A stretch of DNA of 64,000 nucleotides from Deinococcales bacterium (lineage in GTDB: Bacteria > Deinococcota > Deinococci > Deinococcales > JAAFIG01). Position numbers and translations under genes: made by a program. The notes beneath the pieces were generated by a model that worked only from the letters and a program-made list of their open reading frames with translations, was not told the DNA's origin and did no database searches. The stretch lies in contig JAAFIG010000006.1 in NCBI GenBank assembly GCA_013298595.1, positions 5 through 64,004 of the forward strand, in the 5' to 3' direction. Positions 1 through 64,000 of this stretch are shown one piece after another; positions within the stretch are counted from its first letter, which is position 1, and each line of letters starts with the position of its first letter.

Positions 1-122
1 GACAACATCTTTGCTTACCTCAATTGAATTCGTATTGGTCGGTACGAGCTTGTGTTTGCCGCAAGATTGCAGGGCATAATCTGCGGATTTGGTTGGGGCT
101 ATAAACCACTAGCACCCGACGT

Positions 123-506
123 TTTATACAATTACATAAACAAGCACAACGATACCGTTTTGATCTTGGATCTGTGACAGCATTTACTTGTACCATTGCT
201 CGAAACTTTGCGATCTCACGCTTGCGAGCACGCCGCTCACGCCCAGATTACAACCAAGACTACGACGTTCACGACCCTGTCACTGCCCCACCTGCCAGCC
301 TAGAAGACGACCCGCTCGAGCGTGTATTGGTCAAACGTGCCCTCGCACATCTTAATAACGAAGAACGCCAACTGATGGAAGCCTCATTCTATTCTGGCTA
401 CAGCCATCAAGAACTCTGTGAACGTTATAACATGCCACTAGGATCATTGAAATCAAAACTCCGCCGCGCCCTCTTGAAACTTCGTGCTGTGATTGGAACC
501 GCATGA
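123..506 (+). pseudogene. ECF sigma factor (SigK-like), 5'-truncated
   Basis: Region 2 remnant FIQLHKQAQRYRFDLGSVTAFTCTIARNFAISRLR and region 4 (GYSHQEL...PLGSLKSKLRRAL) are present. An in-frame TAA at 102-104 leaves no room for the N-terminal part of region 2. Confidence 0.6.
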
Positions 507-1219
507 ACCAACCAGATGATCAACTGCTTGATTATGTGCTCGACTTGCTCGAGCCAAATGAACGTATGGCGCTCGAGACTGTATTAGCCACCGACCCAGT
601 TCGTTGTGCAGAAGTACATGCTTTGCGTCAAGCCATGCAACTGCTGGTTGATGACTTACCCAGTGTTGAACCACCAGCCTTGGTATACGCGCAACTCGAG
701 CACAAATTCAAAACCGTCAAACAGACCACCCTGCCTGCTTTAACATCAGCTTTACCAAGACAAACCCGCAAAGCCCCAAGTCTACAACGTCGCCAATCTC
801 CAGTGCCTCGTTTTATACCTTGGCTGATTTCGGGCTTAGTTGTGATAAGCGCTTTGTTTTTAGGAATTAACACCTATATCGGACGTGAAACCATGCTTTT
901 AACAGCTTATTTGAATGACCCAACAGTACGAAAAATTGATCTGAAAAACGAAGAAGGTCAGCTCACAGGTTTATTATTGTTACGCCAAAATGGTCAAATG
1001 CTGGTTGACATGAACACAGCACCACCCGAAGGTCAAGTTTTCCAAGCCTGGGGCGTAACTGGTCCAGCGAACAAACGCGTTGCCACATCAATTGGATTAA
1101 GTACTACCAAACAATTTGAAGTTGATATCCGTAAGTACCCGATTATTTGGATCAGTATTGAACCAACTGGAGGCAGTGCTAAACCCACCAAAAAAGTGGG
1201 TCGTAGCAAACTAAGTTAA
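503..1219 (+). CDS. Anti-sigma factor, RskA family
   Basis: N-terminal LLDYVLDLL anti-sigma domain, one TM helix, C-terminal PPEGQVFQAW...ISIEPTGGS motif; ATGA overlap with the ECF sigma gene. Confidence 0.85.
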   Translation: MNQPDDQLLDYVLDLLEPNERMALETVLATDPVRCAEVHALRQAMQLLVDDLPSVEPPALVYAQLEHKFKTVKQTTLPALTSALPRQTRKAPSLQRRQSPVPRFIPWLISGLVVISALFLGINTYIGRETMLLTAYLNDPTVRKIDLKNEEGQLTGLLLLRQNGQMLVDMNTAPPEGQVFQAWGVTGPANKRVATSIGLSTTKQFEVDIRKYPIIWISIEPTGGSAKPTKKVGRSKLS

Positions 1220-1272
1220 ACTATCTTAAACCAAATAAATGCCACAAAGGTAGAGTAGAAATTGGCTTTTTG

Positions 1273-61319: not shown

Positions 61320-61358
61320 GCCGCGATTCTAACCAGTACGCAACCGAAAACACAAAAA

Positions 61359-63929
61359 TTACAGAGTAACAGCTAAGCGCCACAAACGCACTCGAGCCGC
61401 CACCCGAATAAAACCCACATCATCCGAAGTTGCTACTTGCTCGAGTTTGACTTGATGACTCGAGACACGAACCACTGCTAAACGCACTCGAGCACGAGGG
61501 TCTGCCAACATAAAATCCAGATCAAAACCAGCATCTAAACTCGAGAGTGCCACCACAGCCGCCGCTGCCACAGATTCTCTTGGATCATCAAGAAATGGAC
61601 GCAACACAGCGAACTGACCACCCAGTTTTGCCACAGCTTCAATGGCTCGAGGGAGTTGCGCCTCGGGCAGTGCCGCCAGTTGCGTCTCGAGTAACGCCGC
61701 GTTGAACTGCACGCCCTGCGCGGCAATCTCGAGCAGTTCAGCAGCCGATTTGAATGGTGGGTCGAAATTGTGTGCGGGTGAGGCACGCCTCACCGTTACG
61801 GTTGGGGATTGGGCAATCTGATTTTTTGGTAATGCAGGCGAAGCATGCTTCGCCCCTACGGTTGGGGATTGGGCAATTTGATTTTTTGGTGACAGAGGTG
61901 AGGCAAGCGACCCAAGCCCACTGGGTGCTGCTTTAGGGTCAAGAAGCCCCGTCCCTGCGGTTGGGGTTGAATTTGGATGGACAATCTCGAGAATCGCTGT
62001 TCCGTATTTCTCGAGAATGGTTTTACCCACACCTTTTATTTGCTCGAGTTGTTGCAAATTTTTTGGCATGGTCTGAGCGATGCTCTCAAGGACAGCGTTG
62101 CTGGCAACAATAAAAGCGCTCAGATTGGCAGCTCGAGCAGTTTCGCGTCGCCACGTCCAGAGTTCTTGGAGTAACGTTTCTTGGTTTGTTGTGATGGCTC
62201 GAGATTGGGTTTGGGTAACAGGTTTTTTTGGTAATTCCTGCGGCACTGGGGTTGCAGTTTTGCTGATGCTGATCACACCATTTTTCATGATTAAATCGCC
62301 TTTTTCGATCATCTCGAGCATCACATCTCGAATGATTTGGCGACCAAATTTCTTTAAAGCTCCGTGCATCGGATGACGCTGCAAACCTTTACTTTCGATG
62401 GTGCTGCTACTCGAGCCTGCCAGTAACGCTGTGACATCTCTTGGCTCGAGGCTGTGGGTTGCAAGCAGTTTGGTTAATGCCGCACGGATTTGTTCTTTTT
62501 GGGTTGGAGTGGCTTTTTTTTCAAGACTGGCAGCCACAGCTTTGACATTGAGTTCGCCAATACTTGAGTCGCAGGCATCGCAGCGTTTACATGGTGGGAT
62601 ACGCTCACCAAAATGTCCGATCAGAAAAGCTCGGCGGCAAGCTCTGGTTTGGGCGTAACCCACCACTTTTTCAAGGGCAGTATCCTCGAGTTTACGCCTG
62701 CGGTACATGCTGCTAAAATCCACAGGTTTTCTTGCATCCACAACCTGAAAAGCCCCACCCATAGCTTCTAAATTGCCATTCTCGAGCAAAAGTTTGACTG
62801 CCACATTGATCGGTGTGGTATCAAAATTCATCCGCGCCGCCACATCCGACGCACTGCCAGGAGTGTTCTCGAGATTTTTCAGAACAGCTTGGACAATGCG
62901 TTCAGGTGGATAATTTTTCTCCATGATGCTTTTACGGGTCATCAGGTCTTGCGGGGCATACAGTAAGGCTGCATGGGCAGGTTCGCCGTCTCGTCCTGCT
63001 CGCCCTGCTTCTTGGTAATAGGCTTCGATGGTGCTGGGCAAAGAGTAATGCACCACCAAACGCACATCGGGTTTATCCACACCCATACCAAAAGCAATAG
63101 TGGCACAAATACAATCAAGTTCGCCGCTTAAAAAAGCATCTTGGACTTCGGCTCGGTCTTTGTCCGACATACCAGCGTGATACGCTCTTGTACCCAGAAT
63201 ATCGGCGATTTCTTCGGTATTTTTACGGCTCAGGCAATAAACAATACAAGCCCCAGGATGCTTTGCTCGTAACGCATGCAGAGCCTCGAGTTTGGTGGCT
63301 TTGGTTGGCGCGTAGTGGCTACTAAATGTTAAGTTCTGCCGATCAAAACTCCCGACTTGTACCAATGGTTCGCGCAGCAAGACTCGAGCGATTTCTTCTC
63401 GCACTTTCGGTGTTGCCGTCGCCGTTAAAGCAAGGCGCGGCGCTGTAATACCCTCGAGTAAACTGCCTAGGCTCAGATAATCTGGGCGAAAATCATGACC
63501 CCATTGCGAAACACAATGGGCTTCATCAACCACCACCAAGCTGGCACGCTCGAGTAAACTGCGACTGGCTCGAGCGCGTTCAGGAGCGATATACACCAAT
63601 TTATAATCGCCGTTGCGAATACCAGCAAAACGTGTACTGGCTTCGGATTCGGACATGCCACTGGCTAAGTACGTCGCAGGAATACCTTTTTTGGTTAAGG
63701 CATCCACTTGGTCTTTCATCAGTGCAATCAGTGGGCTAATGACAACAGTTGTTCCCTCGAGCAAAGAAGCTGGCAATTGATACGTTAAAGATTTTCCACC
63801 ACCTGTGGGCAGCACTGTTAACGCATCACGTTTTTCCAGCACCGCTTCGATGGTCTCGAGTTGCAAAGTACGAAAAGAAGTGTGTCCAAAGCGTTTGAGG
63901 GCTGTTTGAATGGCGGTACTCGAGATCAC
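61359..63929 (-). CDS. recQ: RecQ-family helicase with HRDC domain and C-terminal HEAT-like repeats
   Basis: PTGGGKS, DEAHCVSQWGHDFRP, ATIAFGMG, YYQEAGRAGRDG, CRR...C..CD.C, HRDC. Confidence 0.93.
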   Translation of the reverse strand: MISSTAIQTALKRFGHTSFRTLQLETIEAVLEKRDALTVLPTGGGKSLTYQLPASLLEGTTVVISPLIALMKDQVDALTKKGIPATYLASGMSESEASTRFAGIRNGDYKLVYIAPERARASRSLLERASLVVVDEAHCVSQWGHDFRPDYLSLGSLLEGITAPRLALTATATPKVREEIARVLLREPLVQVGSFDRQNLTFSSHYAPTKATKLEALHALRAKHPGACIVYCLSRKNTEEIADILGTRAYHAGMSDKDRAEVQDAFLSGELDCICATIAFGMGVDKPDVRLVVHYSLPSTIEAYYQEAGRAGRDGEPAHAALLYAPQDLMTRKSIMEKNYPPERIVQAVLKNLENTPGSASDVAARMNFDTTPINVAVKLLLENGNLEAMGGAFQVVDARKPVDFSSMYRRRKLEDTALEKVVGYAQTRACRRAFLIGHFGERIPPCKRCDACDSSIGELNVKAVAASLEKKATPTQKEQIRAALTKLLATHSLEPRDVTALLAGSSSSTIESKGLQRHPMHGALKKFGRQIIRDVMLEMIEKGDLIMKNGVISISKTATPVPQELPKKPVTQTQSRAITTNQETLLQELWTWRRETARAANLSAFIVASNAVLESIAQTMPKNLQQLEQIKGVGKTILEKYGTAILEIVHPNSTPTAGTGLLDPKAAPSGLGSLASPLSPKNQIAQSPTVGAKHASPALPKNQIAQSPTVTVRRASPAHNFDPPFKSAAELLEIAAQGVQFNAALLETQLAALPEAQLPRAIEAVAKLGGQFAVLRPFLDDPRESVAAAAVVALSSLDAGFDLDFMLADPRARVRLAVVRVSSHQVKLEQVATSDDVGFIRVAARVRLWRLAVTL
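61774..61967 (-). repeat. REP-like cluster plus mini-element translated in frame within recQ
   Basis: 60 bp-period repeat TACGGTTGGGGATTGGGCAAT(C/T)TGATTTTTTGGT, palindromes such as GGCGAAGCATGCTTCGCC-CCTAC, and a mini-element at 61906-61944. Confidence 0.85.
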
Positions 63930-64000
63930 AATTTATATTACGTCAAAAACAGAAAATAGGCTAGGGGAATTTGATATGATCCAATCAATGCCGATGCGTT

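Follow-up and report, generated by a model that had tools for sequence, protein, structure and literature searches.

The stretch analysed here, 64,000 nucleotides of contig JAAFIG010000006.1 (positions 5 to 64,004) in the Deinococcales assembly GCA_013298595.1, hereafter the window, raises the question of why a single six-base palindrome, CTCGAG, should occur in it at several copies per kilobase, and what could maintain such a word. An original prediction, made from the letters of the window alone, held that CTCGAG behaves as a highly iterated palindrome comparable to HIP1 of cyanobacteria. Our analysis of the window and of related genomes shows CTCGAG to be a highly iterated palindrome in one uncultured Deinococcota family and in some members of the sister family. 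The excess (hereafter, the trait) is genome-wide, extends over all codon phases and intergenic DNA and is specific to these lineages, and its sites are kept between genomes above the level of control hexamers, in line with that prediction.

Abundance, reading frames and spacing of CTCGAG

The window contains 342 copies of CTCGAG (5.3 per kb), spread over its full length. One hundred dinucleotide-preserving shuffles yielded a mean of 6.95 copies (standard deviation 2.17, maximum 14), and none of the 100 reached 342. The hand tallies that accompanied the prediction proved exact on recount, with 24 sites in positions 1-4900 and 27 (9.4 per kb) in the 959-residue open reading frame (ORF) at 22320-25199 on the minus strand, which encodes an ATPase plus TPR protein.

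Across the assembly to which the window belongs (G000, in which the window lies on contig 56; 4,582,226 bases, 68 contigs, 45.2% G+C content (GC), 94.4% complete), CTCGAG occurs 27,211 times, or once per 168 bp, and accounts for 3.6% of the sequence. Base composition predicts 899 copies, a first-order Markov model 465 and a second-order one 1,873; the observed number is about 30-fold above the expectation from base composition. CTCGAG is the top-ranked hexamer by threefold, the runner-up (ACTCGA, 9,284 copies) itself overlaps the motif, and the same is true of every hexamer down to rank 8. Under the maximal-order Markov model the ratio is only 1.18, a figure that is uninformative here because the pentamers CTCGA and TCGAG are almost confined to CTCGAG. 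Sites are present on each of the 68 contigs, with densities of 2.3-7.1 per kb, so that the enrichment is not confined to the contig of the window. TCGA is found 39,695 times, of which 27,211 lie within CTCGAG, and the remaining TCGA is not enriched; positions -1 to -3 of the sites are within a few percent of background composition. Since flanks are near background and TCGA outside CTCGAG shows no excess, the unit is the hexamer and not a longer repeat. The excess is confirmed as real, and it is stronger than originally stated.

Coding DNA was approximated by a crude set of ORFs, taken longest first (3,697 ORFs, 87.6% of the genome). Coding and non-coding DNA had practically the same site density, 5.94 and 5.93 per kb, respectively, and 23,844 of the 27,211 sites were wholly inside ORFs. 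All three phases were occupied, CTC|GAG 13,470 times, xCT CGA Gxx 5,937 times and xxC TCG AGx 4,473 times, and the profile around gene starts and stops was flat at about 6 per kb. Two nulls were used. Shuffling synonymous codons within genes gave 2,305-2,417 sites (five shuffles) and shuffling codon order gave 1,035-1,079 (five shuffles), against 23,831 observed, an excess of about tenfold and about 22-fold, respectively. A dicodon-preserving shuffle was unnecessary because non-coding density equals coding density in this genome. These results bear out both earlier statements on the subject, namely that sites occupy all three codon phases as well as intergenic DNA and that codon usage is an unlikely cause.

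The imprint on the proteome is strong. Away from the sites, 8.6% of Leu residues are encoded by CTC and 18.5% of Glu residues by GAG; from this usage 320 Leu-Glu pairs spelt CTCGAG would be expected, against 13,453 found (42-fold). Leu-Glu heads the list of over-represented dipeptides in the crude ORF proteome (19,982 pairs, observed/expected 2.35). CTCGAG spells 67% of these pairs, and 17,279 of the 19,982 are either CTCGAG or transition-only derivatives of it, while codon pairs that a transversion separates from CTCGAG are at 0.09-0.27 of expectation. Ser-Ser reaches an observed/expected ratio of 1.56, and other pairs ending in Glu are depleted.

Neighbouring sites in G000 are separated by 168 bp on average. 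Relative to an exponential distribution, gaps of 7-30 bp occur at 0.1-0.8 of expectation, those of 50-200 bp at 1.2-1.4 and those of 300-1,000 bp at 0.72-0.87. A spacing of 6 bp never occurs; the closest pair in the window, with starts at 8791 and 8798 (8791-8803), is 7 bp apart, the minimum spacing found anywhere. The pair correlation g(r) is 0.31 at 7-15 bp and rises to about 1 near 70 bp, whereas eight control motifs give values of 0.8-1.5 with no short-range hole. Below about 60 bp there is mutual repulsion of sites, and the depletion at the closest range is repeated in three other trait-bearing genomes (G013, G157 and G042). Among distances up to 3 kb, the only periodicity detected in G000 was the 3-bp coding signal.

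There are 45 stretches of at least 1.4 kb free of sites in G000. Those examined fell into two groups: islands of 31-38% GC with glycosyltransferase, sugar-nucleotide and transposase genes, and a cluster of giant surface-protein genes. The surface cluster (contig 19, about 28-66 kb; L131, L132) encodes proteins of 2,550, about 1,190, 2,759 and 2,168 residues, has normal GC and carries 0.9-1.8 CTCGAG per kb; the three of its proteins that were scanned have beta-propeller, cadherin-like or Ig-like domains. In the window, the largest site-free stretch is at 51574-53171 (1,604 bp between the flanking site starts, 39.7% GC, compositionally atypical), within a minus-strand ORF at 51617-53665 whose 682-residue product had no NCBIfam match. 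The observed/expected ratio of CTCGAG, about 30 in the bulk of the genome, falls to 9.5-16 where GC is below 37%. Site-poor stretches of atypical composition are probably imported DNA.

Phyletic distribution and turnover of sites

To place G000, we used RecA and RpoB. The best match of RecA in PDB was 1xp8 (548 bits, against about 450 for others), and those of RpoB were 1iw7, 1i6v and 1l9u (1,673-1,689 bits, against 1,220 for the next), all of which we take to be Deinococcus and Thermus proteins. By its sequence, G000 is placed in a Deinococcota family represented here by metagenome-assembled genomes alone. The G000 assembly yielded no 16S gene. We scanned 364 Deinococcota genomes for the trait, and used sampled DNA for finer statistics in G013, G157, G158 and G042. 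The question of whether relatives share the trait, which had been left standing, has a clear answer: all 19 family genomes, which come from five genera and have a GC of about 45-62%, carry 4.3-6.8 CTCGAG per kb, and so do, at their own densities, three genomes of the sister family f3, with about 8.6 per kb in G156, 7.0 in G157 and 3.6 in G042 in whole-genome scans. The trait is present in two of the three species of the genus of G156 and G157, the third, G158, having 0.30 per kb. All 111 genomes of a large Deinococcus-like genus (g7) are without it and avoid the word, with only 26-1,372 copies in genomes of 1.9-6.7 Mb. Thermus-like genomes have about 1 CTCGAG per kb, and several GC-rich genera of families f2 and f5 reach raw densities of 2-3.5 per kb, uncorrected for codon usage.

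The samples gave the same picture. In G013 (family member, 60% GC) CTCGAG had an observed/expected ratio of 14.9 and Leu-Glu one of 2.11. The congeners G157 and G158 are nearly identical in GC (51% and 50%), and differ in density (7.2 against 0.29 per kb), in the observed/expected ratio of CTCGAG (28 against 1.2) and in that of Leu-Glu (2.38 against 1.32); 81% of the Leu-Glu pairs of G157 are spelt CTCGAG. Some lineages also show preferences in the flanks. Position -1 is G or C in 74% of the sites of G157, and in G042 it is C in 67%, the extended form CCTCGAGG accounting for 322 of 692 sites (47%) in the sampled loci L218-L227.

A maximum-likelihood tree of RpoB recovered the family as monophyletic (support 100/99) and as sister to f3 (99/99). 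In f3 the first branch was the genus comprising G156, G157 and G158, followed by G042 and then by a group of G041, a trait-less member of f3, with g7; avoidance of CTCGAG is thus seen in a clade that adjoins trait-bearing lineages. This topology requires three changes of the trait, possibly one gain and two losses. In G158, transition-type one-off words are at 1.5-1.7 of expectation, which is compatible with loss of the trait or with never having had it.

We then compared sites between genomes. An alignment of G000 with its relatives G014 and G004 (about 75% identity), covering 9.5 kb and corresponding to 7468-16616 of the window on the plus strand, contained 62 columns with a site, 21 of them common to the three genomes. 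Of the G000 sites, 23 of 41 were kept in G014 and 30 of 40 in G004, against 21% of other hexamers; for the window region, CTCGAG was kept in 56-88% of cases against the same 21%. In rpoB, pairs of genomes from different genera kept 914 of 1,808 sites (50.6%) against 22.2% of controls. Overall, CTCGAG was kept 2.5-4 times better than other hexamers. The partner matters: family sites were matched in G156 and G157 at 160 of 316 positions (50.6%, controls 14.6%), in G158 at 13 of 158 (8.2%, controls 10.6%), and in trait-less outgroups at 219 of 2,064 (10.6%, controls 12.0%). As judged from these aligned genes, the excess of conservation is specific to trait-bearing partners, the same permissive positions being hit convergently in the second trait-bearing lineage.

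Conservation is limited to the hexamer. At 0-6 bp from shared sites, divergence is 24-31%, equal to that of distant DNA, and no zone of lowered divergence around sites was seen in the alignments. An origin of sites by insertion of six bases was rejected, with gaps in only 2 of the 62 site columns; unshared sites differed by substitutions. Where a site had changed, its counterpart was one base off in 11-27% of cases for CTCGAG, against 45-63% for control hexamers. Between closer species (86-93% identity), on hand reading, single-base losses and gains of sites were many. One-off states arise and do not last, since they are common between close species and rare among distant counterparts. Across G000, words one transversion from CTCGAG are at 0.11-0.58 of the expectation from base composition and those one transition away at 0.96-1.59.

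Gains could be followed in rpoB. Of the 15 family rows, 11 have CTCGAG (Leu-Glu) in place of ATTCCG (Ile-Pro) and all 15 have TCG AGx in place of ACC TCx, and neither change is seen in any of the 11 outgroup rows; other gains were limited to single genera. These genus-specific gains bear out the view that sites originate inside the lineage. Every genus goes on acquiring new sites, through synonymous as well as amino-acid-changing substitutions, and the proteome has followed the DNA, as the Leu-Glu excess and the replaced RpoB residues attest. Multi-base gains on terminal branches, read by hand, were too few to separate concerted writing from stepwise change.

Four public runs of one study, labelled biofilm metagenome, yielded contigs nearly identical to the window, with 4 differences in 20 kb, none of them within sites; the runs gave neither a population signal nor one of methylation. 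At 1417-1722, inside the minus-strand ORF at 1273-2121, these contigs break or diverge, and one skips 246 bases (1439-1686), which suggests that this segment varies in the natural population.

Candidate readers and explanations of the excess

We searched the gene content of G000 for a protein that could read CTCGAG. Six DNA methyltransferase genes were found, none distributed like the trait. C11, a TaqI-like gamma-class adenine methyltransferase of 499 residues whose closest solved relative is M.TaqI (TCGA), is present in 2 of the 19 family genomes and was rejected on this mismatch; the names of its 1,443 relatives in the database give no hint of specificity. Directly upstream of it (L002:402-2826, contig 11 of G000) lies an ORF of 307 residues without a Pfam match, and the pair recurs in G004 alone, at 43-47% identity; it is a candidate restriction-modification system. 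The others were rejected as well. The C5 enzyme C15 is 77-82% identical in six of seven congeners and has only distant paralogues elsewhere; C34, an N4/N6 methyltransferase that forms an ordinary type II system with an adjoining NotI-like nuclease (L004:1399-3245, contig 34), is patchily distributed; C2 has matches in 4 of 364 genomes, the close one in G000 alone; and C66 and C9 were not found in G013 or G011, two good family genomes. The relatives' other methyltransferases belong to ordinary restriction systems: a second C5 enzyme, in G003 (L248:2843-4844) and G017 (L249:425-2423), forms a type II system with an NgoBV-type nuclease, the two methyltransferases being 77% identical, and a class of about 500 residues, absent from G000, is type I HsdM. 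Eco57I-type domains occur also in G041, G020 and G024, which lack the trait. The XhoI nuclease family (PF04555) had no matches in G000, and likewise none in control genomes, which makes this negative uninformative.

Repair genes fared similarly. No match to the Vsr model PF03852 was found in G000 (at its 94.4% completeness). By their Pfam models, NucS is present in 224 and MutL in 248 of the 364 genomes, and neither follows the trait; MutL is found in 17 of 18 family genomes in addition to G000. As a side observation, MutL and NucS tend to replace each other throughout the phylum (in f2, 36 and 96 of 128 genomes, respectively), and by the same two models the 12 genomes of genus g8 have no MutL and a single NucS. 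The original prediction had ascribed the sites to a methyltransferase plus a repair bias, or else to an uptake or nucleoid signal. Gene content lends the first no support, since none of the six methyltransferases, MutL or NucS tracks the trait and no Vsr gene was found in G000; the other two are weighed below.

Taken together, the sequence patterns call for a force that would read the intact hexamer, remove or restore one-off variants, create sites at a cost to proteins, saturate locally and act slowly on imported DNA. Our tentative explanation, which may be correct but falls short of being probable, is a conversion bias toward intact CTCGAG coupled to recombination or transformation and mediated by a reader of restriction-modification type. 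Such a protein would read duplex CTCGAG, and alleles with an intact site would be favoured whenever genome copies recombine with one another or with kin DNA that the cell has taken up. The process would resemble biased gene conversion, with one-off variants restored from intact copies; the same bias would spread new sites, acting alike in genes and spacers, and addition would stop where another site already lay within the footprint. Natural transformation and polyploid recombinational repair are established in cultured members of the phylum. HIP1, too, has been linked to transformation (bioRxiv 10.1101/2024.09.10.611283 and PMC13756078, in their available parts).

Several points weigh against conversion bias as the explanation. 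No reader protein was found in the gene-family searches of G000. A plain uptake bias does not predict repulsion over about 60 bp, and this short-range repulsion is more easily reconciled with a footprint or with saturation than with a simple uptake signal. Transformation alone is not sufficient, because g7 is without the trait though its cultured members are transformable. The same patterns would result if a bound site were under purifying and positive selection, and they therefore do not separate drive from selection. The equality of coding and non-coding densities in G000 is not general, since non-coding DNA is somewhat denser in G013 (6.7 against 4.3 per kb) and G157 (7.9 against 6.9), both with crude ORFs. 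Finally, the genomes being related, the pair counts of kept sites and one-off words are not independent events.

An unlikely alternative is the methylation-dependent repair ratchet of Elhai's HIP1 model, in which a CTCGAG methyltransferase would mark strands, and methyl-directed nicking or mismatch repair would fix site-creating and revert site-destroying changes, leading to saturation without the word having a function of its own. CTCGAG is a typical type II recognition site, six DNA methyltransferases are encoded, one of them nearest M.TaqI among solved structures, MutL is nearly universal in the family, and the avoidance of CTCGAG in g7 suggests that enzymes reading it circulate in the phylum. 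The model also predicts saturation, and hence the repulsion that we observed, but its published saturation distance is about 1 kb against about 60 bp here (both points from the available part of PMC4390886). Against a ratchet also stand the gene distributions described above, in that none of the six methyltransferases follows the trait, Eco57I-type domains extend to trait-less genomes, no Vsr gene was found in G000 and MutL and NucS are uncorrelated with the trait; and as divergence beside sites is not lowered, a zone of better repair is not visible.

Rather improbable, too, is that the sites are bound by an abundant, sequence-specific nucleoid or chromosome-maintenance protein, with ordinary selection for even coverage at one site per about 170 bp. 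The density that is flat over genes, spacers, starts and stops, conservation limited to the hexamer, a repulsion below about 60 bp that suits a protein footprint, and the deficit of gaps of 300-1,000 bp (0.72-0.87 of the Poisson expectation) would all agree with it. Yet no protein emerged as a candidate, spacing up to 3 kb lacks periodicity beyond the coding signal, and the repulsion fades gradually, without a step. Moreover, G158 and the Deinococcus-like clade would both have lost the trait without trace, which demands a function that can be done without.

A classical DNA uptake sequence, built purely by a bias of the uptake machinery like the uptake signal sequence (USS) of Pasteurellaceae and the DNA uptake sequence (DUS) of Neisseriaceae, is in our view very doubtful. 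It would account for a clade-wide motif with dialects (CCTCGAGG in G042, G or C flanks in G157), for the occupation of all codon phases with effects on peptides and for the scarcity of sites in probable imports, and the phylum does include naturally transformable species. The known uptake sequences, however, have 9-12 bases, are non-palindromic and occur about once per kb; a hexamer separates self from foreign DNA poorly; and repulsion over 60 bp is not predicted. An origin of the excess as a side effect of base composition, of codon or dicodon usage, or of mobile elements or dispersed repeats that contain CTCGAG has close to no chance of being right: CTC and GAG are common codons in GC-rich relatives, Thermus-like genomes have their one site per kb and CTC|GAG is the commonest phase, but both shuffles are far exceeded, non-coding DNA in G000 is as dense as coding DNA, CTC and GAG are infrequent outside sites, near-background flanks leave no longer repeat unit, the alignments show substitutions and not insertions, and G158 is at baseline at the GC of G157. 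The remaining probability we assign to mechanisms outside these five.

Returning to conversion toward intact CTCGAG, a more far-reaching version is possible but on balance doubtful: an active sequence-specific conversion system, unrecognised by current family models, would write and repair CTCGAG. It would have arisen once, in the ancestor of this family and the Deinococcus family, rewritten about 3.6% of the genome and a quarter of glutamate contexts, and been lost twice, in one species of a small genus and on the line to Deinococcus, where CTCGAG became avoided. To our knowledge, thirty years of work on HIP1 have not found the gene set behind highly iterated palindromes; if this version were true, G157 (with the trait) and G158 (without) would expose that set by simple subtraction.

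Other palindromes are strongly avoided in G000. GAGCTC has 15 copies, CCGCGG 8, GACGTC 7, GGCGCC 22 and TTCGAA 23, and among the four-base words GGCC has 165 (0.01 of expectation) and CCGG 1,028 (0.09); the window has no GAGCTC and 3 GGCC. GAGCTC is at or below 25 copies in 16 of the 19 family genomes, the exceptions being G002 (114), G012 (161) and G010 (568); it is rare in g7 to a degree similar to CTCGAG, and not avoided in G042 (1,197 copies genome-wide). This suggests heavy restriction pressure alongside the CTCGAG excess. The most depleted dipeptides of G000 in the crude ORF set are Trp-Pro (observed/expected 0.10) and Gly-Pro (0.34). Restriction-site avoidance also shapes the proteome, because the codons of these pairs spell GGCC or similar words.

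Some further genes of the window may be mentioned. An S8 (mycosin-like) peptidase gene lies directly upstream of the gene for the 959-residue ATPase plus TPR protein (20722-25199), and a second TPR protein, of 948 residues, is encoded nearby at 34999-37845. At 61359-63929, on the minus strand, is a RecQ helicase of 856 residues, whose C-terminal residues 568-652 weakly match ribonuclease D models and whose nearest relatives in the genome collection, all from distant phyla, are only 32-52% identical.

Comparison with known systems

CTCGAG is the recognition site of XhoI and PaeR7I, and XhoI-type enzymes would cut these genomes into pieces of about 170 bp unless the DNA were modified. Restriction-site avoidance nevertheless has the opposite sign, a deficit in place of the 30-fold excess seen here. 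Dispersed repeats, such as repetitive extragenic palindromic elements (REP) or miniature inverted-repeat transposable elements (MITE), do not resemble the sites either, whose flanks are background-like and 23,844 of whose 27,211 copies lie within ORFs.

The Dcm plus Vsr system of Escherichia coli is alike in that repair tied to a site shifts the abundance of a word and of its one-off variants, CCWGG going up and CTWGG down. It differs in its small effect and its restriction to T:G mismatches at one position. For CTCGAG, no Vsr gene was found in G000, and the neighbours depleted are all those of transversion type and not those produced by C-to-T change, TTCGAG/CTCGAA and CTTGAG/CTCAAG being at 1.27-1.59 of expectation in this genome.

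USS and DUS are likewise genome-wide words shared by a family, with dialects, and lie inside genes in several frames; their spread is thought to go by molecular drive through recombination. They are longer, non-palindromic and about ten times sparser, with a core of 9-12 bases at about one copy per kb, where CTCGAG is a palindrome of 6 bases at one per 168 bp. What defines them is that DNA carrying them is taken up preferentially.

Highly iterated palindromes have so far been cyanobacterial, with no agreed function or origin. We found no published report of CTCGAG hyper-abundance in full-text searches; supplements, possibly with other phyla, lay outside this search. The main text of Elhai 2015 (PMC4390886) does not contain CTCGAG, and the main texts of PMC4390886, PMC5861425 and PMC13756078, without their supplements, do not contain "Deinococc". 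HIP1 itself (GCGATCGC) is a different word, of 8 bases and from cyanobacteria, against 6 bases in Deinococcota, and CGATCG has only 78 copies in G000. The word described here is shorter and at an even higher density: where CTCGAG occurs once per 168 bp, the abundance of HIP1 can exceed one per gene (PMC5861425, available part), and its copies are reported to recur quasi-periodically over tens of kilobases (Xu et al. 2018, PMC5861425, same part). Unlike HIP1, CTCGAG leaves a strong imprint on the proteome (Leu-Glu 2.35-fold) and shows short-range repulsion. HIP1 accompanies GATC and CGATCG methyltransferases, whereas for CTCGAG we found no conserved cognate orphan methyltransferase. HIP1 has also been discussed as a possible uptake sequence (PMC13756078, available part).

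The new case has its own uses. It shows that a force at the level of DNA can bend protein, to the point of making Leu-Glu the top dipeptide and replacing conserved RpoB residues. It offers natural contrasts, between two congeners of equal GC with a 25-fold difference in density (G157 and G158), in a sister genus (g7) that moved from probable possession of CTCGAG to its avoidance, and in a lineage with an 8-base dialect (CCTCGAGG, G042). In practice, the excess distorts the binning of these genomes by k-mers, as well as models of their codon usage and statistics of their dipeptides.

The likeness to HIP1 and the alternate HIPs of cyanobacteria is nonetheless close. These words, too, are palindromic, 15- to 300-fold over-represented and present in all frames and in non-coding DNA (PMC5861425, PMC4390886 and the available part of PMC13756078); according to the same sources, as far as available, they are kept between genomes above control words, and they are clade-wide, with some lineages lacking the word, as G158 and g7 do here, and others using variant words, as does G042. 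CTCGAG shares with them a genome-wide excess, occurrence in all frames and non-coding DNA, conservation above controls and a clade-wide distribution with exceptions, and as a second case, in an unrelated phylum, it makes the highly iterated palindrome a general phenomenon.

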